64,000 nt of DNA from an uncultured Pseudomonadales bacterium (GTDB lineage: Bacteria > Patescibacteriota > Microgenomatia > UBA1400 > UBA1396). The number at the start of each line of letters is the position of its first letter. Position 1 is the first letter of the stretch. The translations under genes and the position numbers were made by a program. The stretch lies in contig CAZEEI010000001.1 in the NCBI GenBank assembly GCA_964511175.1, positions 23,216 through 87,215 of the forward strand, in the 5' to 3' direction. Shown piece by piece: positions 12,125 through 63,196 of this stretch. The notes below the pieces were generated by a model. That model ran no database searches and was not told the DNA's origin. It was given only the letters and a program-made list of their open reading frames with translations.

Positions 12125-12592
12125 ATGCAAAAATCAGCAGTTTTAGTTAAACCAGATGGTTTGCAACGCGGCTTAATCGGGGAGATCATTTCCCGGTTTG
12201 AGCGCAAGGGTTTAAAGCTGGCCGGAATTAAGATGATCCAGTTAACCGATGAGATTCTGGATGAGTGGTATTCTCACCACAAAGATAAGCCATTTTTCCC
12301 TAAGTTAAAGGGATTTATGATGCAAACACCGATTGTCGCCATGGTTTGGGAGGGGGTCGATGCCATTGATACCATCCGTCAACTGGTTGGTATTACCAAA
12401 AGCCGGGCTGCTGAAGCCGGTTCGGTACGGGGCGACTTAGCCATGTCGATGTCCAATAATCTAATCCATGCTTCTGACAGCACGCAGGCTGCCCAACGCG
12501 AAATAGGGCTGTTGTTTGGCGAGGAAGATATTTTTACCTACGTGAGTGCGACCGACGTACTGGTTTATAGCGATGAAGAACGCGACCTTTAG
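12125..12592 (+). CDS. ndk: Nucleoside diphosphate kinase
   Basis: AVLVKPDGLQRGLIGEIISRFERKGLKL...NLIHASDS with the catalytic His region. Start at ATG 12125 after an AAAGGAAAAAG RBS. Confidence 0.85.
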   Translation: MQKSAVLVKPDGLQRGLIGEIISRFERKGLKLAGIKMIQLTDEILDEWYSHHKDKPFFPKLKGFMMQTPIVAMVWEGVDAIDTIRQLVGITKSRAAEAGSVRGDLAMSMSNNLIHASDSTQAAQREIGLLFGEEDIFTYVSATDVLVYSDEERDL

Positions 12593-13553
12593 GGTGTAAC
12601 CCTCCAGGCGTGGAGTGCAAATGGGAACCTCCTCTCCCTCTTAATTCGGCCCACCAGACGCCTAGGGCAACCAAGGCTAAGGCCACCATTACACCAGGCG
12701 TGACCGGTTCGTGGAGAAAAAACACGGCCAGAGGCACGTAGAAGATTGGTTCCAGGTAAGTAAATAAGCCGGCCTCAGAAGCCTCCATGTTATTTTGGCC
12801 AATAATATAGGCGGTTAAGCCGATAATCGAACCAAATGTTGCCATATAAAGACTGGACCAGCCCACAATCGGCTGCTGCAACTGCTGCCAGCCAATCGAC
12901 ACCAACTCGTTAAAGTTTAAGCCGAGTTTAAACATCGAAAGACCGGCAAAACATACCATGCCAACGTAAAAACTAATCGTGGTGACAAAAAATTTAGGCA
13001 GTTTTTGATAGTATTTTTTGGCCAGCAGCAAGGCGGCGGCCATAATGAAATTGTAAGCAACGACCAAAGCGTTACCGCTAAAAGAAACCCGGTCCACCAA
13101 CATCTGTCCGTCGAGTAGGGGTTCAATGGCCAGAAAGAGCGTACCACTCAAAGCTAGACCCAAACCAATCCATTCGCGTTTTTCCTCTTTTTCGTGTAAG
13201 AAAATAATGCCACCGAGCGTCAAAAAAAAGGGCAGAGTGGTGACGATCAAACTGGCTTCTAGTGAAGAAGTGCGGTCTAGTCCTTCATATAAAACACTTA
13301 GAGCCAGTACAGTGCCCAGTAGTTCAATGCCGACAATACGGGGAATGTAGCGGATTAACCGCCGCTGTCGCCAAAGGTACCAAACTAAAATCGGCGTAGA
13401 AAGGATTGCCGCCAAAACATAGCGGTAAAGCAAGAATTGAAAGGGGGTAGTAACGGAGAGCGCCGGTTTCACAATGGGCAGAGCCACACCCCAAACGGCA
13501 ACATTAATCAGCAGAAAAATTACGCCGATAGTACGTGGTCGTAAGGCAGGCAT
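12534..13553 (-). CDS. EamA/DMT-family transporter (about 10 TM)
   Basis: Two repeated 5-TM halves typical of the drug/metabolite transporter superfamily. Start at MPALRPRT (13553). The 3' end overlaps the ndk 3' end by 59 nt. Confidence 0.6.
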   Translation of the reverse strand: MPALRPRTIGVIFLLINVAVWGVALPIVKPALSVTTPFQFLLYRYVLAAILSTPILVWYLWRQRRLIRYIPRIVGIELLGTVLALSVLYEGLDRTSSLEASLIVTTLPFFLTLGGIIFLHEKEEKREWIGLGLALSGTLFLAIEPLLDGQMLVDRVSFSGNALVVAYNFIMAAALLLAKKYYQKLPKFFVTTISFYVGMVCFAGLSMFKLGLNFNELVSIGWQQLQQPIVGWSSLYMATFGSIIGLTAYIIGQNNMEASEAGLFTYLEPIFYVPLAVFFLHEPVTPGVMVALALVALGVWWAELRGRGGSHLHSTPGGLHPKGRVLHRYKPVRRSHSRR

Positions 13554-19385: not shown

Positions 19386-20133
19386 CGCGGTGATTAAGGC
19401 GATCATTAGGCATTGTTTTACTGGTACTGGTCAAGAGTTTCAAGATTGGTGGCAACAACATTTGCAGACAGGTCATGGTTTACAGTTGATTTTTACGCCT
19501 AATCCCGAGCAAAGCGTATTGGCAACCGATAGCGACACATTTCGTGATTGTTTGCTAAGCGGTGATCAGCTATTAGCCGATGGCGCCGGTCTGGTGTGGG
19601 CCTCACGCCTGGAGGGTGTCACCCTCCACCGTATAACCGGTGTGGATATGACGGCTTGGTGGTTGCGGGTAAATCGCCAAGGAAAGGTGTCAACCTTACT
19701 GATTGGCGGCCGCGACAACGTGGCGGCAGATTTGGCGCGCCAAGTTGATCCTGACGACCAGTGGTGCTCTGGTATATCTGGCCACCTCAACGTCGCGGCC
19801 GCCCATGATCCGGCCTATCAAGATCAGATGGCCGATGAAGAACAAGCAATTTTTGACGCGATTAAAAAGAGAAAACCACAAGTAGTATTAGTTGCCTTTG
19901 GCGCTCCATGGCAGGAAGAGTTTTTATGTCGTCATCGGGAACAACTGGCCAAACTAGGCGTCAAAATAGCGATGGTCTGCGGTGGGGCTTTCGATTATCT
20001 CACCGGTCAAGCACCGCGCGCTCCTGGCTGGTTGCGGGCGATTGGCCTGGAATGGCTGTTTCGGTTATGGCAAGAACCCTGGCGCTGGCGGCGACAACTA
20101 CGGTTAATACGCTTCATTCACCTGGTGGTGTAA
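19378..20133 (+). CDS. WecG/TagA-family (GT26) glycosyltransferase
   Basis: LLADGAGLVWASRLEGVTLHRITGVDM aligns to the conserved ADGMGVVWAARLLG...RVAGSDL region of WecG/TagA. Start ATG 19378 overlaps the upstream stop. Confidence 0.7.
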   Translation: MRNAVIKAIIRHCFTGTGQEFQDWWQQHLQTGHGLQLIFTPNPEQSVLATDSDTFRDCLLSGDQLLADGAGLVWASRLEGVTLHRITGVDMTAWWLRVNRQGKVSTLLIGGRDNVAADLARQVDPDDQWCSGISGHLNVAAAHDPAYQDQMADEEQAIFDAIKKRKPQVVLVAFGAPWQEEFLCRHREQLAKLGVKIAMVCGGAFDYLTGQAPRAPGWLRAIGLEWLFRLWQEPWRWRRQLRLIRFIHLVV

Positions 20134-21213: not shown

Positions 21214-21432
21214 TTACTCCGAGAGGGAGTTTCCTTCAATGCCCAGCAACCAGAGAACCGCTTCTTTGCGGTAGCGTCGGTCGCCGCGCGAATTAATCCG
21301 GATAGCTGGCAACTTGCCCCGTTTACCCCAGCGTTTCACCGTCAGAGGAGAGACGCGCAAAAGCTGAGCTACCTCACGCACCGTTAATAGGTCAGGCAAA
21401 TTGTTGATGTCTAGTTTGAGGTCATCGCTCAC
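21214..21432 (-). CDS. Helix-turn-helix DNA-binding protein (excisionase/MerR-like HTH)
   Basis: LLTVREVAQLLRVSPLTVKRWGKRGKLPAIRI is an HTH_17-type motif. 72 aa. Confidence 0.5.
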   Translation of the reverse strand: MSDDLKLDINNLPDLLTVREVAQLLRVSPLTVKRWGKRGKLPAIRINSRGDRRYRKEAVLWLLGIEGNSLSE

Positions 21433-22464: not shown

Positions 22465-22676
22465 AAATGTCCTTTATTATTTTGGGCGACACGACCGAAA
22501 AAAGGAAAAAGTGCGGCTCATAGCGAGCGAAACTATTTTCTCTCCTCGGCACAATGTCGGTGCTTTCTTTGGATCGAGAACTGAATTATAGCAGAAAAAT
22601 GCGACTAAACAAGGTTAAAAGAGAAAATCAACCCTTCTTGCCAAAGTATTACTTTTTTAGTAAAGTATTACCAATT

Positions 22677-22922
22677 ATGAACGGTATTACTACTATTACC
22701 AGTAAAGGCCAGGTAGTTATTCCTAAGTCGATTCGGGATCAGTTTGGCCTCAAGCCCGCCAGCAAAGTGCAGTTTATGGTTAAAGATCAAACTATTTTTT
22801 TGCGTGTACAGCCCTCGGTTAGAGACATCATGGGATCGCTATCAACGTCACGTCGCCTCAATCGCCAACAAGAAAAAAGCGCTTTTGCTCAAGCGGTTAT
22901 TGATGATGTACAGGATAAATGA
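22677..22922 (+). CDS. AbrB/MazE/SpoVT-type antitoxin (VapB-like)
   Basis: ITSKGQVVIPKSIRDQFGLKPASKV swapped-hairpin motif. Start ATG 22677 inside track ORF 22554..22922. Confidence 0.6.
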   Translation: MNGITTITSKGQVVIPKSIRDQFGLKPASKVQFMVKDQTIFLRVQPSVRDIMGSLSTSRRLNRQQEKSAFAQAVIDDVQDK

Positions 22923-23275
22923 CGATCTTAGACACAAGTGCTGTTTTGCGTTTTCTTTTACGAGACGATCGGGAGAAAGCCGAGCAGGTAGCTTTGGTTT
23001 TAGAAAATGAATCGTCAATATTTATTCCGCAGGCAGTTTTTATTGAACTCGATTTTGTGTTGCGTAAAAGTTACCGAATTTCCCGTTCGGACGTAGCTTA
23101 TCAACTCAGTAGTTTGAGCGATCTGCCCAACGTCAAAACTGACCCAGAGACCCGCGTTGCTTTAACCATTTATTTGGGTACCAATTTGAGTTTAGCCGAT
23201 TGTTTCGTTTTGGCGTACGCTCATGGCCAGAGCTTGTGTTCTTTTGATGTCGATTTAATGAAAAACCGCTACTAA
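22919..23275 (+). CDS. PIN-domain toxin (VapC-like)
   Basis: MTILDTSAVLRFLL..., 118 aa, start overlapping the antitoxin stop (ATGA). Confidence 0.65.
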   Translation: MTILDTSAVLRFLLRDDREKAEQVALVLENESSIFIPQAVFIELDFVLRKSYRISRSDVAYQLSSLSDLPNVKTDPETRVALTIYLGTNLSLADCFVLAYAHGQSLCSFDVDLMKNRY

Positions 23276-26201: not shown

Positions 26202-26262
26202 GAAGCGGCATTATACCATAGCGCTTGGCCTAGGTTGGTGTATCAAAATGGCCAAAACCGAT

Positions 26263-26345
26263 AGTTGTACAACTATGATCTGGTAGAACCTTTTCGGTAG
26301 AGACTAGACTTGAGGTAAGTTGTACAACTGTTGGTTTGGCTGGTT
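26263..26345. repeat. Copy A of a ~85-bp intergenic repeat unit bounded by two AGTTGTACAACT 12-bp palindromes spaced 55 bp apart
   Basis: About 88% identical to 56280..56362. Sits in the divergent secE/galU intergenic region. Confidence 0.6.
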
Positions 26346-26418
26346 TTGATAGATAAGCCCGAACCAGATTTTCGCCAGGATTCTCCAATAAAGCGGCCTT
26401 CTGTTATACTGGTTTCCT

Positions 26419-28625: not shown

Positions 28626-28757
28626 ATGACCCGTCAGGTTATGTTGAGGTATTCATTCCTCGATAGTTTGCTTACGGGAGGAGCCGTGTCCCTCAAAAGA
28701 CCGTCCACCCACCTGGATTTTTCCGGGGGCAATGCACTCAACATGCTGACGGGTCAT
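28626..28757. repeat. Imperfect inverted repeat (~22-bp arms ATGACCCGTCAGG..TTGAG / CTCAA..CTGACGGGTCAT) flanking ~90 bp just after metK
   Basis: Left arm 28626..28648 and right arm 28737..28757 are reverse complements apart from a short indel. Confidence 0.5.
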
Positions 28758-29089
28758 TTTATTGGGAAGAGAGCGCTGACCTGCCGCAAAATTTCCACTA
28801 GTTTCTGTTCAGTCAAATAACCGGCCGACTTTTGGATGATCGTTGTTTCCGCAGTAAATAGCTTGTCTGGTCGAGCATAACTGGTTAGCGGTAAACTACC
28901 TTGGCGAAAATCGCTAGCTTGGATTCTAATCGCCAGTCGGCTCGAGTAAGGTTTGGAAGTTATTTGACACAGAATAAAGTTACCGAACTCGGCTTGAGCC
29001 AAAACCAAAGCTGGTCGTCGCTTCTGACCGCGTAAATCGGAAAACGGGAAAGTGACGACCACTATCTGTCCAATTACAAATCGGCCCAC
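28754..29089 (-). CDS. MazF/PemK-family endoribonuclease toxin
   Basis: GQIVVVTFPFSDLRGQKRRPALVLAQ has the conserved MazF/PemK N-terminus. 111 aa. Confidence 0.7.
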   Translation of the reverse strand: MGRFVIGQIVVVTFPFSDLRGQKRRPALVLAQAEFGNFILCQITSKPYSSRLAIRIQASDFRQGSLPLTSYARPDKLFTAETTIIQKSAGYLTEQKLVEILRQVSALFPIK

Positions 29090-29301
29090 GCCTCCTCCTC
29101 CTCAGGACGGTTCCAGTCGGTAGCTAAAACCGATTCACTTAAACGGGCTTGGCGGGCGGTTATTGGTTTGATTGGTCTAATGCGCAGTTCGCCCGCCTTG
29201 ACCTTAATCTCTACGTCCTTAACGATACCGCTTTCAGCCAGCAATACTTTAGGAATACGGATACCGCGGGAATTACCAATGGAAATGATCGTGGTTTGCA
29301 T
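29074..29301 (-). CDS. AbrB/MazE-type antitoxin
   Basis: IISIGNSRGIRIPKVLLAESGI swapped-hairpin. 75 aa, overlapping the toxin start. Confidence 0.6.
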   Translation of the reverse strand: MQTTIISIGNSRGIRIPKVLLAESGIVKDVEIKVKAGELRIRPIKPITARQARLSESVLATDWNRPEEEEAWADL

Positions 29302-29449: not shown

Positions 29450-30241
29450 TTAACGTGATAAGTAACGAGTTTTCTTTCCGAGTTTGCAATCTAAACAATA
29501 TCGGAAAAAAAGGGCAAAAATCATATCGGCACCACCTTGTTTTGTTGCCTCCTCAATTAATGCCTCGATATCTTCCACAGTCACATACTCAAGTAATCCC
29601 AGCGACAATTTTTCTTGAGTGTCTAACTCCTGCCAAACACCAAGATTTTGCGCAATTTGAACATAAAAACGCTGAGCCATTTCGAGAATGACCGTTTCAT
29701 TTGGTCTCAGGGGTCTATCACTGCCCGAATTAAATATAGCATTAGCGTATCCGGATAATATTCTCATGAGCTGTTCTTGCTCCGAGCGTGAAGTTAGTTC
29801 CAAAAGAAAAGATTGTCCCTTGTTTGACTCTGGATGATTGGTTTTTTTTCTTGGTCGTGCCGACATTTTTTTACTACCCTTACGGGCTAGGCAGTATTTG
29901 AACAATTCGACATTATATCCAATGTGTTCTTTCTCAGCTTGTTGGACTAGTGCTTGCAACTCTTCTGGGGTTACATATTCGAGTAAACCCATGGTGGCCT
30001 TCAAATGTGTACTAACTTGGTCAAAGACACCAAGATTTTGCGCAATCTGAATATAAAGACGCTGAGCCATGGCTAGAGTAATATTTTGCCTTGAGTCAGG
30101 AGGGCTGTTGGTAGTTTTGGTAAATAAATAACTGGCGCGGTCGGCCATTATTCTCATGAGCTGTTCTTTCTCTGATTGTGAAGTTAGCTCCAAAGCCAGA
30201 AAAGAATTATTTTCACGCTCATGGTTATTAATTGCAGTCAT
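29450..30241 (-). CDS. Hypothetical protein built from two ~125-aa internal repeats
   Basis: ELTSQSEKEQLMRIMADRA...LAMAQRLYIQIAQNLGVF...LLEYVTPEELQALVQQAEK is repeated as ELTSRSEQEQLMRILSGYA...LEMAQRFYVQIAQNLGVW...LLEYVTVEDIEALIEEATK. Confidence 0.45.
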   Translation of the reverse strand: MTAINNHERENNSFLALELTSQSEKEQLMRIMADRASYLFTKTTNSPPDSRQNITLAMAQRLYIQIAQNLGVFDQVSTHLKATMGLLEYVTPEELQALVQQAEKEHIGYNVELFKYCLARKGSKKMSARPRKKTNHPESNKGQSFLLELTSRSEQEQLMRILSGYANAIFNSGSDRPLRPNETVILEMAQRFYVQIAQNLGVWQELDTQEKLSLGLLEYVTVEDIEALIEEATKQGGADMIFALFFRYCLDCKLGKKTRYLSR

Positions 30242-33085: not shown

Positions 33086-35185
33086 TTATAACCTTTTACC
33101 GGAAATGGAGGCTTCGATTACTTTCAACCGCTCGGTGGCGAACTCCTCGCCAGGCTTAAGCTGGAGAATTTTTTGATATTGGTCAACGGCGGCTGACCAA
33201 TCTCCGGCCGACTCCAAAAACTGGCCAAACTCGTGTCGAGCCTCTTCATAGTTGGGCTTAAGAGTGATGGCTTGGGTGAAGGCGGCGCGGGCGTCGTCGT
33301 TGCGGTGGAGACCACCCAGGATTACGGCACGATTAAAGTAAATTTGGGGATCAGTAGGAGCCAATTGTGCGGCCTGTTCGAGAGCGGCGAGTGCTTCGTC
33401 GTAGTAGCGGGGATCCAGCTTGGCCAAATAAAGGAACACTTTGGCGCGTGATTTCCAAAAAGACAGATGTACCGGATTGAGGGTAACAGCGCGATTAGTG
33501 GCAGCAATGGCTTCGTTGCCTAGTTGGGCTGCAATGGTGGCATCGGTTGGTGCGGCAGCGGTGGCTAAATTCGCCATAAAAGTAGCGGCTTCATCCCAAT
33601 ATAGAGCTTCGCGGGAGGCGCGCTGAGTGAGTTGTTGGAAAAGCTGATAGGCGATGAGTGGCTGTTGGCGCAGTACTTGGCGCTTAGCTTGCGCGAGTAG
33701 TCGGTCATTGGCCCAGGTTCGACAAACTGATAGTAAGGCCAAACCGGTAGCCAGACCCACAACGAGGGTTAGTAGCGAAGAACCGTCCAACTCTACTTCC
33801 CATTCGTCTGAGATCCGATCTCGTTTTAGGGTTACACCCTCCAGGCGTGATGTAGCGGCAGATTCGATCTCATTGATAAAAATCCAAGCCGGCATGAGGA
33901 AGAAAAGAACACCTACCGTTACCGTGGAAAAACCGAAAAAGTTTGATACGGCTAATGCTAGGTAACTGGCCAAAATAGCTGTCGCCAGGGTATTGTGCCG
34001 CCGCAGTAACTGCCAAATCACCGCCCCCATGAGCGTTAGGAGAGCAATGAGTCCAACCGCGCCGGTGGTGGCAAGCGCGTTAAGAAATTCATTGTGCGCT
34101 TTGTTATAGAGAAAATTCCATTCGGACACGGTGTTGTGGGCCAGGGGGCGGTCACGGTAGTAACTATAGGCGAAGGTTTCCACACCGGAACCAAAGAGTG
34201 GGTATCGCTGCCAGACGGCCAAAGCCCCGGACCAAACGATTTGGCGAATAGCACCAGAGTTGGTGCCGCCGTTTTCTAGAACGGTGCCGACCGAAGGAGC
34301 GGCGGGACGCTCAATGGTAGCGGCGGATGGTGGTGAGCTAGGTGAAAAGCGGGCGATCCATTTGAAAGCAGTCGGCGTAAAGGGAGTGCCAAAAAGGAGG
34401 GCAAGAATAACAAATGACGCCAGGAGGGTTACACCCTGAGCAATCCCACGCCTGGAGGGTGACACCCTCAGCCAGACGGCACCGCTAGCGACAAATCCTA
34501 GCAGGCCAGAACGCGAGCCGGTAAATAGCAATACAGTGAAAAACAGCGGTATGCTGGCGGCGCTTAACCAACGTTCCAATTTGGTTCGAGATTGTTGCCA
34601 GAGCCACAACGATAAAGGTAGCAACATAATCAAGTAGGCGGCCAACCAATTAGGCTGGCCAAGAGTGCCAAAGACCCGCGTTTGTACATCCTGTACCCAG
34701 CAACTTACCGAAAATTCACCCGTGATTAAAACGCAGCTTGGCGAAACACCAAAATGTTCCGGTAGGGCATAAAGAGCCACACCAATACCGGCATAAACCA
34801 CTGAACGCACGAGCGGTTTTAGATCATGCCGATCCAAATTACTGACCGCCGCAAAATAAAGTGTTAAGTAGGCTAAAGTCGAAAGCAGTCCGCCGTGGAA
34901 ACGCGAATAATAGCCGAAGATACTGGTGGCAACGTGAATCGAAGTAACTGTGGAAAGCAACTGACTAGTAAGGAAGAAAATGATCGGCCAAAACAAAAGA
35001 GTCCGCTGAAAGATAATTTTTTTAGCCCGAATCATTCGGACCAACCATAAGCCGGCAATCAGGCTGGTGTAGGCGTAAACCAGCATCATTTTATTGAATT
35101 CGAACAGTTCTTCATTGACCGCCGTGAAAGCAAAGGGGACGGTGATTACTAAGGCAGAAAACAACCAAACAATGGCACGGCGCAT
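33086..35185 (-). CDS. O-antigen ligase (Wzy_C)-like polytopic membrane protein fused to C-terminal TPR repeats
   Basis: N-terminal ~12 TM region with NKAHNEFLNALATTG. C-terminal TPR-like repeats (AAFTQAITLKPNYEEARHEFGQFLESAGDWSAAVDQYQKILQLKP). Contains copies of the dispersed GC-rich palindromic repeat (33828-33850, 34420-34468). Confidence 0.6.
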   Translation of the reverse strand: MRRAIVWLFSALVITVPFAFTAVNEELFEFNKMMLVYAYTSLIAGLWLVRMIRAKKIIFQRTLLFWPIIFFLTSQLLSTVTSIHVATSIFGYYSRFHGGLLSTLAYLTLYFAAVSNLDRHDLKPLVRSVVYAGIGVALYALPEHFGVSPSCVLITGEFSVSCWVQDVQTRVFGTLGQPNWLAAYLIMLLPLSLWLWQQSRTKLERWLSAASIPLFFTVLLFTGSRSGLLGFVASGAVWLRVSPSRRGIAQGVTLLASFVILALLFGTPFTPTAFKWIARFSPSSPPSAATIERPAAPSVGTVLENGGTNSGAIRQIVWSGALAVWQRYPLFGSGVETFAYSYYRDRPLAHNTVSEWNFLYNKAHNEFLNALATTGAVGLIALLTLMGAVIWQLLRRHNTLATAILASYLALAVSNFFGFSTVTVGVLFFLMPAWIFINEIESAATSRLEGVTLKRDRISDEWEVELDGSSLLTLVVGLATGLALLSVCRTWANDRLLAQAKRQVLRQQPLIAYQLFQQLTQRASREALYWDEAATFMANLATAAAPTDATIAAQLGNEAIAATNRAVTLNPVHLSFWKSRAKVFLYLAKLDPRYYDEALAALEQAAQLAPTDPQIYFNRAVILGGLHRNDDARAAFTQAITLKPNYEEARHEFGQFLESAGDWSAAVDQYQKILQLKPGEEFATERLKVIEASISGKRL

Positions 35186-35228
35186 GACGCCAGGTTAACA
35201 AATCCGTCAGAGTTTGTACAATGAGGAC

Positions 35229-42881: not shown

Positions 42882-42925
42882 GGCTCGGGGCTGGTTGGGT
42901 ATATTAAAAACTGTTTTTTGTCATT

Positions 42926-42977
42926 TTGTACAAAATCGACGGTTAACTTGTACAACAACCTGGCCTAAATTGTACAA
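42926..42977. promoter_or_regulatory. Array of three TTGTACAA palindromes with exact 22-bp centre-to-centre spacing, upstream of dut
   Basis: Sites at 42926-42933, 42948-42955 and 42970-42977. The same motif and spacing recur at 52648-52699. Confidence 0.55.
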
Positions 42978-43013
42978 AAGAGCAGAAACGTGTTTTTGAA
43001 ATATAGGGGGACT

Positions 43014-45301: not shown

Positions 45302-46149
45302 GGCGCATCGGGGCGCATTTAACATCAGCCGGCGGGCCAGAACGCGCGGTGGATCGTGCCTTAGCCATTGGTGCTGATTGTTTGCAGATTTTTTCTGGGT
45401 CGCCGCGGGCGTGGGCCCGCCGGCCGCTGCACGAGGATGGGTTAAGATCTTTCCAAAAATACAGTTTAGAACATGATATTCGGCCAATCTTCGTACACGC
45501 TTTATATTTAGTGAACCTAGCAAGCGACCAAACAGAACTTGTGCAAAAGTCGGTAAAAGTATTGATTCATGATTTAAAGTTTGGGGCAGGTTTTAATTCG
45601 GCCGGGGTAGTAGTCCATCTAGGTTCCCATCAGGGGAGGGGTTGGCTGGCTGTCAGAGAGAATGTTGCTTTGCTAATTAAAAAAATCATCGACGAAGCCG
45701 CAGCTGATACGCCATTTTTAATCGAAAACTCAGCCGGCCAAAACGGTAAACTCTGTTCCGATCTAAGCGAAGTTCGTTGGTTGCTAGATACGGTGGCGCG
45801 GCCCAGCCTAGGCTGGTGCTACGACACCTGCCACGGCTGGGCCGCGGGTTACTACGCCTCCCAACCACAGTTAGGCGGCAAAAACTTATTAACAGAAGTG
45901 GATCGGTTAGAACTTTGGCCAACTTTGCGTTGTCTTCACGTCAATGATTCGCGTGATCCCTTCGGCGATGGGCGCGACCGGCACGATAATATCGGCAAAG
46001 GACAGATCGACTTGACGGAGTTTAAGATGCTGTTAAATCATGCCCAAGCACAAGAGATACCGATTATTACGGAAGCGCCAGGCTTGGATGGCAATGGACC
46101 TGATAGCTATAATCTAGAAGAAATTAAAAAACTAGTTAGCGTCGTTTAG
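45265..46149 (+). CDS. nfo: Endonuclease IV (AP endonuclease family 2); the true start is probably the GTG/TTG near 45292-45298
   Basis: RIGAHLTSAGG..., HALYLVNLAS, VVHLGSH, LIENSAGQ and DTCHGWAAGY are the xylose-isomerase-like TIM-barrel Nfo motifs. Confidence 0.8.
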   Translation: MERSAPPGSVRLRRIGAHLTSAGGPERAVDRALAIGADCLQIFSGSPRAWARRPLHEDGLRSFQKYSLEHDIRPIFVHALYLVNLASDQTELVQKSVKVLIHDLKFGAGFNSAGVVVHLGSHQGRGWLAVRENVALLIKKIIDEAAADTPFLIENSAGQNGKLCSDLSEVRWLLDTVARPSLGWCYDTCHGWAAGYYASQPQLGGKNLLTEVDRLELWPTLRCLHVNDSRDPFGDGRDRHDNIGKGQIDLTEFKMLLNHAQAQEIPIITEAPGLDGNGPDSYNLEEIKKLVSVV

Positions 46150-46882
46150 CTTTTTCTGACTGACGTTCACTACGTTCGCCTAAATCTAATGCGAGCTTGA
46201 CTTGAGTTGCGGCGACTTCATCTTGTAATCGAGTAATACGAGCGTAATGTTCTTCTTGAGCCTGCTGTTTAGCTACTATTTTTAGTTCTTGTTTTTGGTA
46301 ACGGCGCCGCGATCGTTGTAGCCGTCGAGTACCGGCTAAAACACGGTTGGCTACCAAAGTGGGGTTCACTGTTTGCAGATTAGTATCCTCATTCGCCGCC
46401 AGAGCGATTATTTTTTGACGGGCTGCTGTATATTTTTCTCCGATTGGCGTTTCTGCTGTACAATCAAGTAATGTGCAAGCTATTGTCACCACCAAACAGG
46501 CTGCAAATAATCCCGGGTAGAGCTCTATTTTCTCATCATAGGTAAGTGCAGAAACTTTAAGGATCAAAAAAAGAGCGGCTGGTGTAACCAACGTGAGTAT
46601 TAAACGAGCGAACCTACGGTCTCTCCGAGCATCACGGTATTCTTGGCAAACTTCGATCGCCTGTTGCAATTCAACAGGTAGATCCTGCCATTCAGCATCA
46701 CGTTGGGACTGTATTGCTGCTGCTAACTCATTAGCTCGAGGAGTAGAGCCAGAATTCAGTGGTGCAGTTGCTAGTTCAAGTAAACTTTCGTTCCAAGTTT
46801 GTCCGTCATCACGCGAGTAATCTACGATCAAAACTTCTTCTGGCGCAAGTTCGGATTGCTTTTCTAATAATTGATGTCTCAT
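46136..46882 (-). CDS. Paralog A of a 4-gene tandem family: N-terminal soluble domain (IEVCQEYRDAR motif), two TM helices, basic coiled-coil C-terminus
   Basis: Shares an N-terminal h-h-D/E-Y-x-x-DDG motif and an I-x-x-CQEY-x-x-AR motif followed by 2 TM with paralog B. 248 aa. Confidence 0.5.
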   Translation of the reverse strand: MRHQLLEKQSELAPEEVLIVDYSRDDGQTWNESLLELATAPLNSGSTPRANELAAAIQSQRDAEWQDLPVELQQAIEVCQEYRDARRDRRFARLILTLVTPAALFLILKVSALTYDEKIELYPGLFAACLVVTIACTLLDCTAETPIGEKYTAARQKIIALAANEDTNLQTVNPTLVANRVLAGTRRLQRSRRRYQKQELKIVAKQQAQEEHYARITRLQDEVAATQVKLALDLGERSERQSEKAKRR

Positions 46883-47640
46883 GACTCGTCGATTCCAAGT
46901 CGAGCCCGAGCCTCATCTAACGCTTTCGCTTTTTCGAGAAATAGGGTTTGAGCTGCCTCTTTAGTTTGTTGTTTACGACGGCGGTGATCAGTATCCTGTT
47001 TTTGTTGGCGCAAATCACGTTGCAGAGAGCGGGTGCCGCTCAGAATACGGTCGACAAACCGATCTGGATCAGAGGTGTAAGGGCTAAGACCTAGTTGTTC
47101 AGCCAGCACTAAAACTTCATCGCGGGCTTGCTGATATCTTGTTTTGACTCGTGTGATGCTCTGTGCCAAAGCATCAGCGGGAAGGCTAGCCAAAGAATCA
47201 AGATCATTGTCGGTGGGGCCAGTGTACTTTGCGGAAGTGGCAATACCGCGTGCCAGTGAATAAGCGATTAAAGCAACAAATGGTACGCAGGCTACTTCGG
47301 TAGTAGACAGGGGCGCCCGAGAAATTATGGCCAGTAGCGGCAAAATTATCGACAGCAAAATTAAAAAGGGTAAATAGGAGTCCCGCTTATATTGAAAGCG
47401 AGCCTCTTGATATTCTTGGCAAACTTCGATTATCTGACGTAATTGAGCTGGTATTTCAACCATTTCGCCGTTAGCTGATTGGCTCCGTAGTGAGTCCTGA
47501 TAGTTGGCGATTAGGTCGGCGACTACCTGGTCGATTTCCAGATCGGAGTCAACTTGTTCTGTCTCTGGATTAGCGAAAGGGCTTGCGCCATCATCGATGC
47601 CATATTCATCAATCAGAACTTCGTGATGTTGGAGTTTCAT
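46879..47640 (-). CDS. Paralog B of the tandem family (253 aa)
   Basis: EVLIDEYGIDDGASP...LRQIIEVCQEYQEARFQY..., 2 TM, then a basic C-terminal region. Its stop overlaps the start of paralog A. Confidence 0.5.
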   Translation of the reverse strand: MKLQHHEVLIDEYGIDDGASPFANPETEQVDSDLEIDQVVADLIANYQDSLRSQSANGEMVEIPAQLRQIIEVCQEYQEARFQYKRDSYLPFLILLSIILPLLAIISRAPLSTTEVACVPFVALIAYSLARGIATSAKYTGPTDNDLDSLASLPADALAQSITRVKTRYQQARDEVLVLAEQLGLSPYTSDPDRFVDRILSGTRSLQRDLRQQKQDTDHRRRKQQTKEAAQTLFLEKAKALDEARARLGIDES

Positions 47641-47695
47641 AACGTCCTATATTATATCATAATAGACGTAACCCGGCAGAGATTAGGGAACTTAA

Positions 47696-48191
47696 TTATC
47701 GGAAACGTTTAGCGCTTTTACTAATGCGTTTGGCGGCGGCCTTAGCGTCAATAGTCTTAGGGTCAAGCGTATCGCCAGCTATTCGTTTAGCTACTTTTTG
47801 GCCGGCTGTCCGCACTTTGGCCCCGGAAAGATCGTCAAACAATCCTCCCATTAACTCATTAGTTCCCTCAAAGTTATTGTTTCCGGCTAATATGTCTCCC
47901 CAGCACGACATGGCTTCAAAAAGGAATATGGCAAAACCAAGTCCACCCAAGCCAGCCAGCAGCATTTCCGGTCTGAATTTGCCATCGATCATAGTTAATG
48001 AACTAATAACCGCTAAAACCAAGAAATAAAGTGAAGGCGCGGTCATGACGGGCCTCCTGGTATTCTTGGCAAGCTTGGATAGTTTCCTGTAACGGCTTGG
48101 GCAAATCGTAAAAGTCAGCAAATGTAGGGCTATTTATTTGTTGAGTTAATCGATCGACTTCCTCTTGATTTTGCTTTGACATAGTCATCAA
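47696..48191 (-). pseudogene. Paralog C of the tandem family, split by an apparent 1-nt frameshift
   Basis: ORF 48003..48191 carries LQETIQACQEYQEARHDRAF then stops. The TM and C-terminal portion continues in another frame (47696..48046) from ...PSLYFLVLAVISS. Confidence 0.4.
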
Positions 48192-48212
48192 ATTATAGCA
48201 TACCCAGTCAGT

Positions 48213-48653
48213 TTAATAACGCTTAGCCTTGTTGGGATCAGACCCGTCTTTGCCGAAATATCGATCAAAAGCTGCTTGTGCTCCAAGGTGGTAGAGAGGT
48301 GGGTGCTCGTTTTCTGCTGGCAATTGACCGCCACTAGCGGCAACAAAATCGCGTACAAAATCCGCGGTTTTGGAGTAAACCTGATCAATTGCTAACTTTT
48401 GGATTATGGCAGTAATCCGTTCATTAGCTTGTTGATGTTGTTTGTGAGGTCGTTTTACCAAAGATAGCCATTTTGAGCGTCGTGAGGTAGTTTGGTATGC
48501 GCGGCAGGCATCAACGATTTCCCAGTAAAAATAAAGGTTGTCGGTTTTCAATTGGTCAACCAGGTCTGATAAATTAAATTTAGGTTGTTCGCCATCATGG
48601 TAAGAATAGTCTTCAACGAGAATTTCACCATGACGCAAGTTATTTTTTAACAT
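48213..48653 (-). CDS. Paralog D of the tandem family (soluble, 146 aa, no TM)
   Basis: GEILVEDYSYHDGEQP...YFYWEIVDACRAYQTTSRR retains both family motifs but lacks the TM segment. Confidence 0.45.
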   Translation of the reverse strand: MLKNNLRHGEILVEDYSYHDGEQPKFNLSDLVDQLKTDNLYFYWEIVDACRAYQTTSRRSKWLSLVKRPHKQHQQANERITAIIQKLAIDQVYSKTADFVRDFVAASGGQLPAENEHPPLYHLGAQAAFDRYFGKDGSDPNKAKRY

Positions 48654-52614: not shown

Positions 52615-52647
52615 TGGCCAATATTTCAAAATAGCCAAAACCGCCTA

Positions 52648-52699
52648 TTGTACAAAAAGAACATCTGTTTTGTACAAAATGGCTGATCAAATTGTACAA
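52648..52699. promoter_or_regulatory. Second array of three TTGTACAA palindromes at exact 22-bp spacing (convergent tsf / membrane-gene intergenic region)
   Basis: Sites at 52648-52655, 52670-52677 and 52692-52699. Confidence 0.55.
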
Positions 52700-52732
52700 C
52701 TATCGGTTTTTGGGTTTTCAATATATTTCCCT

Positions 52733-56238: not shown

Positions 56239-56279
56239 AGATTTTCAGTAGGAATGTTTCAAAAACCCAAAAACCAGTA

Positions 56280-56362
56280 GTTGTACAACTATGATCTTGT
56301 GGAGCCTTTTCGGTTGAGGCTGGACTCGAGGTAAGTTGTACAACTGTTGGTTTTGGTCATTT
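56280..56362. repeat. Copy B of the ~85-bp repeat unit bounded by AGTTGTACAACT palindromes
   Basis: About 88% identical to 26263..26345. Sits in the convergent prs / HAD-gene intergenic region. Confidence 0.6.
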
Positions 56363-56375
56363 TGATATATGCTGT

Positions 56376-60504: not shown

Positions 60505-60715
60505 GTGACAGGTTGGTTACACGAATTCCTAGTTCGTGGTTCCGTAGGGAGGGCAGGTGAGGAACCGGTAAGCTAACTCATCCGGCTGGTTGGTCGTTAC
60601 GCAACTTAATGAGCTTGGCCTTAGCCAAGAAAAGTCAGGTGGTACCACGGTTTGTCCGCCGTCCTGGCAAGCACTAGCAAAGTAGTGTTTGCGGGGACGG
60701 TTTTTAAAGTTAGGA
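60505..60715 (+). promoter_or_regulatory. T-box-like leader upstream of the tRNA-binding protein and proS
   Basis: AGGTGGTACCACGG (60637-60650) matches the T-box consensus AGGGUGGUACCGCGG. It overlaps a long hairpin plus TTTTT (60654-60705) that could act as terminator or antiterminator. A Stem-I-like GGTTCC...GGAACC hairpin lies upstream. Confidence 0.45.
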
Positions 60716-62509: not shown

Positions 62510-62553
62510 AGTTGTGATTGACCAATACACATATTTGTGTGTACAATTCGGCC

Positions 62554-62859
62554 ATGAATATTAATGCGGCTCGTCAAATACAGTATTGGCAGGATTTATC
62601 GGCCGGTTTGTTGTTGGGTAAGGTTAAGGCAGATCGACGTCTCCAAGTGAAGATGCCTAGCCAAGTGGTGGTCCAACTGGACGCCTTGTTTCCTGATGTT
62701 GACCGTAGTTTTGTCTTAACCCAGCTGGCGGTTAATGCCATTGCTCAGGAATTAAAATTTCACGACAGGGAGGCGTTGCGTTCTTTGGCTAGTGCCGAAC
62801 AGAGTGGTTTAGATGACATGTTGGTTTATCTGGAGAAAAGGGATGCCGAGTCAGACTAA
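62554..62859 (+). CDS. Putative antitoxin partnered with the downstream PemK/MazF toxin
   Basis: Small acidic protein immediately upstream of, and overlapping, the toxin gene. Confidence 0.35.
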   Translation: MNINAARQIQYWQDLSAGLLLGKVKADRRLQVKMPSQVVVQLDALFPDVDRSFVLTQLAVNAIAQELKFHDREALRSLASAEQSGLDDMLVYLEKRDAESD

Positions 62860-63196
62860 CCCTGTTTTGCCGAAGGCAGGCGATATTTTTCTCGTTAAGT
62901 TTCATCCGGGGTATGGAACGGAGTTGCGCAAGTACCGGCCGGCAGTGATTGTTTCGGATCGAGTTACCTTGGCCGACCAGCGCTTTGCCCTCATCGCTCC
63001 TTTAACCACCAGTACTAAAATTTTTCATCCTCGGACAGAATTAACCATTAAGCGCAATCCTGCTTTAGAAAAAGATTCGGTTTTATTATGCTGGTATTTA
63101 TGGACAATTGATGTTGATCGATTGGTAAGAAAATTAGGTAGTTTAAGTTTGACCGATCAACATAAGATGACTGAGATGCTACGCGATTTATTTTAG
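62843..63196 (+). CDS. PemK/MazF-family toxin
   Basis: PKAGDIFLVKFHPGYGTELRKYRPAVIVS is the MazF/PemK signature. Confidence 0.65.
   Translation: MPSQTNPVLPKAGDIFLVKFHPGYGTELRKYRPAVIVSDRVTLADQRFALIAPLTTSTKIFHPRTELTIKRNPALEKDSVLLCWYLWTIDVDRLVRKLGSLSLTDQHKMTEMLRDLF

Follow-up and report, generated by a model that had tools for sequence, protein, structure and literature searches.

Several families of small non-coding repeats are known in bacteria. The Correia elements of Neisseria (CREE/NEMIS), ERIC/IRU and RUP are 100–155 bp long, have terminal inverted repeats, are located between genes and form long hairpins, and the Correia-type elements are present in many copies, also at the 3' ends of genes and in operon junctions, some of them with a site for IHF. 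The REP/BIME sequences of enterobacteria, especially those of the IHF-binding RIP/RIB type, are palindromic extragenic mosaic clusters with a bias towards gene 3' ends, and bind IHF and gyrase. Another kind of array, in which protein sites recur at steps of about two helical turns, is seen in the iterons of theta plasmids and in tripartite phage operators. Small dispersed palindromic repeats are familiar in Proteobacteria and Firmicutes and hardly described in the reduced genomes of the CPR. No published description of the motif treated here, of MITEs in Patescibacteria or of HU-like arrays in Bacteroidota was found in the literature, where a search with the motif is swamped by Gateway attB primers.

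The DNA under study is a stretch of 64 kb from a metagenome-assembled genome, called the window in the following. Its proteins are encoded also on a 240-kb contig at NCBI and in the Logan assemblies of SRR8925802. Its gene content is in keeping with Patescibacteria (CPR), with a short EF-Ts, toxin-antitoxin modules in the ribosomal protein cluster, ComEA, ComEC and DprA, and the named homologues of its TopA are all from Patescibacteria (Pacebacteria, Woesebacteria and "Patescibacteria group"), the closest relatives having 70–77% identity in this protein (P0137-P0142). Four intergenic elements of 104–117 bp are found in the window, and they make up a dispersed-repeat family that is new, consists of small palindromic units and is MITE- or REP-like in kind. 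The elements are similar to Correia, ERIC and RUP in size class, terminal inverted repeats, location in intergenic gaps and hairpin folding, but there is no sequence similarity, and instead of a single host-factor site they have two or three short palindromes on an 11-bp lattice. In REP the base of the stem and a 5' tetranucleotide of the GTAG type are conserved while the loop varies, whereas in the CPR elements it is the centre of the palindrome that stays the same and the outer parts that differ, and no RAYT gene is present in the 70 kb that were read. Iterons and phage operators occur once per replicon beside rep or repressor genes, unlike the CPR elements that are dispersed, bounded by inverted repeats and found also at convergent gene ends.

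The palindrome common to the elements is TTGTACAA. A sequence-only reading of the window had reported two triplets of this 8-mer with exact 22-bp phasing, one upstream of dut and one between tsf and a convergent membrane gene, and both the coordinates and the start-to-start step of 22 bp are confirmed, far beyond what chance would give. TTGTACAA is the commonest 8-mer palindrome of the window, with 11 exact copies against 1.25 ± 1.15 expected from dinucleotide shuffles, and none of 100 shuffles contained 11 or more. When every 8-mer was scanned for phased exact triples with periods of 9–60 bp, the two TTGTACAA arrays were the only ones in the window, and 30 Markov-simulated windows gave none in the same scan. 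A chance origin of the triplets is ruled out by the shuffle counts together with the period scan. A restriction-site effect was also rejected, TGTACA being overall just mildly enriched (23 sites against 13.4 expected) with half of the sites belonging to the elements. Two additional pairs of TTGTACAA, each with its two sites 55 bp apart, had been missed in that reading. Sites with one mismatch are not enriched in the window (29 seen, 31.7 expected), and chance alone should give about one exact site. The single site at 35214 and likewise the near-site at 62539, which had been listed beside the arrays, are therefore best read as noise; neither of them matches the arm profile of the elements described below.

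Both triplets and both 55-bp pairs lie in the four imperfect palindromes (Table 1). Terminal inverted repeats of about 34 nt are common to all four, with arms that are 70–79% complementary, and nine arms, from the four copies in the window and a fifth copy in contig L115, can be aligned to one consensus, TATATCAAAAnnnCCAAAACCnnnAGTTGTACAAC. Every element has one TTGTACAA in each arm. In type A (e26 and e56) the arms are separated by a central hairpin domain of 43 bp, which places the two sites 55 bp apart, and in type B (e42 and e52) a third TTGTACAA is located at the centre of the element, giving steps of 22 + 22 bp. All site spacings (22, 44 and 55 bp) are thus multiples of 11 bp. The TTGTACAA cores of the elements are exact in 10 of 10 cases, and the copies differ by 16–35% elsewhere. 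The sequence between the sites was said to differ between the two triplets, which is correct (family D3, 67–82% identity), and with divergent spacers and exact steps it is the motif and the spacing that are conserved and not a copied block. A search with the arm profile found these four elements and nothing else in the window, with E-values of 4.6e-7 and 2.4e-4 for the arms of e42 and 4.5e-8 and 7.5e-7 for those of e52, and no degenerate copies were detected by it. The gaps occupied are of all three kinds, namely one divergent, one tandem and two convergent, and the elements extend to within 5–18 bp of the stop codons beside them, the one larger distance being that of 64 bp to the start of the NTP-transferase gene.

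Table 1. Location of the palindromic elements in the window, of a second repeat, and of arrays upstream of HU-HIG genes selected by protein similarity. Positions are those of the window, except for the last three rows, where negative numbers are counted from the HU-HIG gene.
Feature	Type	Extent	Sites	Context	Repeat families
e26	type A, 116 bp	26239..26354	TTGTACAA at 26265, 26320, within arms AGTTGTACAACT	divergent gap, nusG operon (-) / NTP-transferase gene (+), neighbours by Pfam	family D1, inverted repeat I5
e42	type B, imperfect palindrome, 104 bp	42900..43003, arms 42900-42933 and 42970-43003	TTGTACAA at 42926, 42948, 42970 (42926..42977), outer two in arms, middle one at element centre	tandem gap, dcd stop 42881 to dut start 43014, element 10 bp upstream of dut start	inverted repeat I8, 74% complementary
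e52	type B, imperfect palindrome, ~107 bp	52621..52727	TTGTACAA at 52648, 52670, 52692 (52648..52699), 22-bp period	convergent gap, tsf stop 52614 / DUF1189 gene stop 52733	arms joined to e26 and e56 at 81-83% (families D5, D7; inverted repeats I2, I6)
e56	type A, 117 bp	56254..56370	TTGTACAA at 56281, 56336	convergent gap, prs stop 56238 / HAD hydrolase stop 56376	family D1, inverted repeat I1; 84% identical to e26
CACGCCTG repeat		12586-12613, 19603-19630, 33828-33850, 34416-34438, 34447-34469			
L144, Haloflavibacter			TTGTACAA, TTGTACAA, TTCTACAA at -119, -97, -75	upstream of HU-HIG	
L146, Polaribacter sp. SA4-12			three (C/T)ACTAGTATA at 22-bp steps, palindrome TACTAGTA	upstream of HU-HIG	
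L147, third HU-HIG orthologue			three to five ATAGTACTAT at 22-bp steps, palindrome TAGTACTA	upstream of HU-HIG	

The elements are repeated also outside the window. In contigs of the source sample, taken from the Logan assemblies of SRR8925802, a fifth copy of type A in inverted orientation is located 6 kb past the window, in contig L115, giving five copies in about 70 kb. One Logan contig ends at 56368 and the next, which at its other end stops within the fifth copy, starts at 56339, both positions being inside e56, and contig breaks inside the type A copies indicate that these are multi-copy, as assemblers usually behave in this way at repeats. Comparison with two relatives shows that the elements were added in this lineage. 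The contigs L141 and L142, with 79% identity in PyrH, share the gene order tmk-nfo-folD-pyrH-rpsB-tsf...frr-M50-prs...proS with the window, and in their 33 kb there is not one TTGTACAA and no match to the arm profile. The stop and start codons of dcd and dut abut in L141 (TTTGAATGAAC) with a junction of about 0 bp, and in the window they are separated by 132 bp, 104 bp of this being e42. The family is compact and anatomically clear, and in this gene-dense genome it has been inserted even at an operon junction. The small size, the non-coding sequence, the terminal inverted repeats, the several dispersed copies and the absence from orthologous sites are features by which MITEs are recognized. 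The triplets are, with little doubt, the cores of a palindromic dispersed-repeat family whose copies are lineage-specific insertions.

As insertions the elements do not represent regulatory sites conserved with dut, tsf or prs. A gene-specific operator, for dut or for the genes next to tsf, would agree with the position of e42 just ahead of the dut start codon and with the three sites at two helical turns, which resemble a tripartite operator. It is very unlikely, however, as e52 and e56 have a stop codon on either side, in convergent gaps that offer no promoter for control, and as the sites belong to a dispersed repeat that is missing from the orthologous regions of the relatives; for the same reasons a promoter operator of the adjacent gene was rejected as a class for the elements.

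In a second sample (Logan SRR8925769) contig_6704 (L002) has dut and e42, with its position 1 corresponding to 42900 in the window, and the contig thus ends exactly at the first base of the left arm of e42. The terminus of e42 may here be the breakpoint of a structural variant, or the agreement may be a coincidence. In JGI metagenomes the type A signature gave no further copies, only unrelated tandem satellites. These contain AGTTGTACAACT (JGI contigs L116-L139), and have repeats of 44–56 bp at about 41–47% GC or of 51 bp at about 58–61% GC. Among viral contigs there was a single match, L140 from IMG/VR, a contig of 68.7 kb in which AGTTGTACAACT is part of an unrelated 11/13-bp tandem repeat, (ATGTACAATAG)n.

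The period of 22 bp is classical for plasmid iterons, and short tandem palindromes are found in centromeres of the parC type, so that a replication origin or a partition centromere could be imagined, and the sequence-only reading had named centromere- and iteron-like sites among its examples. This is the least probable explanation. The loci number at least five in 70 kb of a chromosomal region with housekeeping genes, no rep or par genes were found near the elements by Pfam in the window, and nothing similar to the CPR or the Bacteroidota arrays (see below) is present in 72,556 plasmids and 50,697 phages. Both an iteron-type origin and a partition centromere (parS/parC) were rejected on these grounds.

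A genome-wide scan for the triplets had been proposed as a check of the motif. With one genome per species, 185,579 GTDB species were searched for exact TTGTACAA triplets at 22-bp spacing, which gave 110 loci, against about 0.002 expected by chance; the species of the window was not among the matches. The loci are nearly all in Bacteroidota (Bacteroidaceae, Prevotellaceae, Flavobacteriaceae and Cytophagia) and belong to many unrelated spacer families. Three sites are commonest (79 arrays), followed by four (23) and five (5), with one array each of six and 14 sites, and just 5 of 109 arrays are inside long ORFs. Each Bacteroidota site is part of a longer palindrome with variable outer arms, and complementarity at the five positions outside the core is 47–63%, compared to 26–31% further out. 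The CPR elements have the 8-mer, the 22-bp period, the predominance of three sites, the intergenic location and the frequent inverted flanks in common with these arrays, and e42 and e52 both have three short palindromes at an exact 22-bp period, with the same motif as in most of the arrays. They are from another phylum, though, and no homology between the CPR arms and the Bacteroidota families is found outside the core ± 2 bp, indicating that what is common to both phyla is the motif and the lattice and not the descent of the element.

The association of the arrays with promoters or with convergent gene ends had also been suggested for checking. Convergent, divergent and tandem gaps number 20, 14 and 37, which is about the proportion in random intergenic regions, but flanking genes end towards the array in 69 cases and start from it in 40. 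This location and the 3'-end bias point to REP- or MITE-like sequences, since a promoter operator would be located mainly upstream of genes. No transposase or integrase was found among the 109 genes flanking the non-redundant Bacteroidota arrays.

A Bacteroidaceae MAG, Horse_feces34 (JAKSIZ01, with loci within L004-L112), has about 40 copies of a modular element. Its core is made up of three GAAAGTTGTACAACTTTC units at 22 bp, and it is flanked by two inverted modules in any combination, either GAACGCTTAACTCGAAAAAAAG or its reverse complement GGGTGTCTGTTGGGGGTGGAAAAAAG, giving a BIME-like mosaic. The modular structure with interchangeable flanks is a further likeness to REP/BIME.

The type A elements can form strong hairpins. 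The fold of e26 has -51 kcal/mol on the plus strand (z-score -7.7) compared to -35.5 kcal/mol on the minus strand, and that of e56 has a z-score of -6.4. Type A elements are 9–15 kcal/mol more stable on one strand, an asymmetry caused by G-U pairs. Type B folds are weak, with z-scores of -2.6 to -3.6, the latter being that of e42. At the gathering thresholds Rfam recognized only tRNAs in the window and no element, and relaxed searches gave sub-threshold matches to miRNA hairpins alone. None of the elements was called as a canonical intrinsic terminator in the terminator scan, and the numbers of promoters and terminators predicted in the window are at the shuffle background.

The hairpins might act as RNA, terminating transcription in both directions, stabilising 3' ends or being cut by RNase III, like Correia and REP. 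The strong and strand-biased type A folds are consistent with this, and so are the position of e52 and e56 at convergent gene ends and the 3'-end bias of the Bacteroidota arrays. Yet a hairpin needs neither an invariant 8-mer nor an exact 22-bp spacing with free spacers, the type B folds are weak, there is no terminator call and no Rfam match above trivial hairpin similarity, and termination would do harm at e42, which is located in what was once the junction of a dcd-dut operon. An RNA role is for these reasons improbable as the main function, and a cruciform- or RNA-level role of the long hairpin is a minor alternative.

HU-HIG is essentially a Bacteroidota family. It is also the commonest Pfam family beside the Bacteroidota arrays (PF18291, 8 of 109 neighbour genes), and the array is in all these cases located 86–196 bp upstream of the start codon. 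As an independent test HU-HIG orthologues were chosen by protein similarity alone and their loci were then retrieved (Table 1), and an unbiased scan of periods from 15 to 30 bp selected 22 for each of them. A strong 22-bp triple (score of at least 7 out of 10) is present upstream of 11 of 13 HU-HIG genes, compared to 10 of 821 control genes (1.2%). Loci with such arrays are L011, L026, L030, L035, L042, L060, L062 and L103, selected by pattern, and L144, L146 and L147, selected by protein. They have three to five short palindromes, in most of them TTGTACAA, with an exact period of 22 bp, 75–200 bp upstream of the start codon, and belong to one orthologue group in Flavobacteriia. The architecture is kept throughout and the palindrome differs along with the protein encoded beside it, and this argues for an autoregulatory binding array. 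The palindromes TTGTACAA, TACTAGTA and TAGTACTA are all rich in flexible pyrimidine-purine steps, which would suit proteins that kink DNA. As judged from these gene neighbourhoods HU-HIG is the best candidate for a reader of the lattice in Bacteroidota, although the association may reflect another regulator instead. The cases with alternative motifs are too few for a DNA-recognition code to be drawn from the HU-HIG alignment. Which DNA is targeted by HU-HIG has been an open question from the time of its definition as a family, in 2017, and a lack of sequence specificity was argued for by Burroughs et al. (PMC5499826). The tie of the lattice to one orthologue group gives the testable hypothesis that HU-HIG reads the TTGTACAA, TACTAGTA and TAGTACTA arrays, and also a signature by which the binder in CPR might be found.

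In the about 70 kb that were read, corresponding to about 7% of the genome at a size near 1 Mb, there are no genes for HU, IHF, HU-HIG, transposases or integrases, and a profile of 22 HU-HIG proteins gave no match to the six-frame ORFs of the window, L115, L141 and L142 (best E-value 1.5). The 72-residue HTH protein at 21214-21432, put forward earlier as a possible binder, is encoded on the minus strand and is of a HTH_17/MerR-like family. Together with the antitoxins it makes up all the DNA-binding candidates of the window, and none of these could be linked to the motif.

The TTGTACAA lattice is, on balance, probably a platform for a DNA-binding protein. This is favoured by the invariant cores in flanks that diverge by 16–35% and by the fit of the spacings to the 11-bp lattice, and a function by the hairpin only would not need exact cores and spacing, which favours a protein that reads double-stranded DNA on one face of the helix. 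The earlier suggestion of an ordered array of several dimers stands in this respect as the best reading of the invariant phased cores, whereas a gene-specific operator, a centromere or an iteron is not supported. The repeat family has spread into short intergenic gaps of this Patescibacteria genome, and dimers of one DNA-binding protein would bind cooperatively, all of them on one face of the helix. By analogy with HU-HIG in Bacteroidota this protein is more likely an architectural, DNA-bending protein of the host than a transposase, and effects on the neighbouring genes, such as insulation, termination or local folding of the DNA, would be secondary to the binding.

A purely selfish MITE is another explanation to be considered. 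A transposase encoded in another part of the genome would then bind or cut at TTGTACAA, the elements would have no function for the host, and the phasing would come from the assembly of the transposase on two ends. The terminal inverted repeats, the small size, the several intergenic copies and their absence from relatives are all as expected for such an element, and TA adjoins 7 of 9 termini, as in elements of the IS630/mariner type. The intact cores could also be understood, since only copies with intact sites would transpose and selection for transposition competence would thus preserve them. No transposase is encoded in the 70 kb, however, there is no autonomous element with matching terminal repeats in the window or in L115, and neither transposase nor integrase is found beside the Bacteroidota arrays. 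A third central site, as in type B, and arrays of 4–6 sites are atypical of the terminal repeats of MITEs. The AT-rich termini (TATATC...) make a possible target-site duplication ambiguous, and the conservation of the HU-HIG upstream array in several genera looks more like function than parasitism. We regard a purely selfish origin as possible but rather unlikely, and a platform for a host protein as the preferred reading.

The core of the elements is unusual in being a short palindrome on an exact 11/22-bp lattice that recurs in unrelated sequence families of Bacteroidota. A wider reading, which at present is speculative and has a low probability, is that a class of architectural proteins binds specifically and cooperatively to short palindromes placed on a lattice of exactly 22 bp, and that a protein of the HU-HIG type together with the repeats makes up a system found across phyla. 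TTGTACAA would be the commonest palindrome of this system, replaced by TACTAGTA or TAGTACTA in some lineages. In Bacteroidota the binders would be expanded, orphan HU-HIG paralogues that regulate their own expression through the upstream array, and that also occupy the REP-like arrays dispersed at gene ends. The binder in CPR would have been acquired horizontally, possibly from a Bacteroidota host or neighbour by way of the competence system, or else the geometry would be convergent. If true, this would be an unrecognised system of a sequence-specific nucleoid protein and a dispersed repeat in two phyla.

A second repeat, unrelated to the elements, is present in the window in five copies on both strands (Table 1). 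It consists of CACGCCTG followed by a 15-bp palindrome, GAGGGTG-W-CACCCTC, and three of the copies are inside an ORF with Wzy_C/TPR domains (33086-35185). The region 46136-48653 on the minus strand contains four hypothetical genes that have no Pfam match and share repeated segments (family D2, at 46626, 47399 and 48049). The cluster is located between nfo and folD, which are adjacent in L141 and L142, and it looks like a lineage-specific insertion of small paralogous genes.

A leader of about 230 nt is conserved upstream of the tRNA_bind/proS genes, at 60636-60650 in the window, 19800-20070 in L141 and 10640-10900 in L142. It contains a T-box-like motif, GGTGGTACCACGG, and ends with a terminator-like hairpin followed by a T-run. 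In Rfam no family is above threshold for the leader of the window and that of L142, and it may be a divergent T-box.

A duplication with an offset of 390 bp (29637-29804 and 30027-30194, 77–88% identity) is internal to an ORF of 263 residues without Pfam match (29450-30241, minus strand). Three toxin-antitoxin modules are encoded among core genes in the window, namely a MazE-PIN pair between rplJ and rplA, inside the L11-L1-L10-L7/L12 cluster (22554-23275), a MazE-MazF pair beside tRNA-Thr (28754-29301), and an antitoxin with PemK at 62518-63196.
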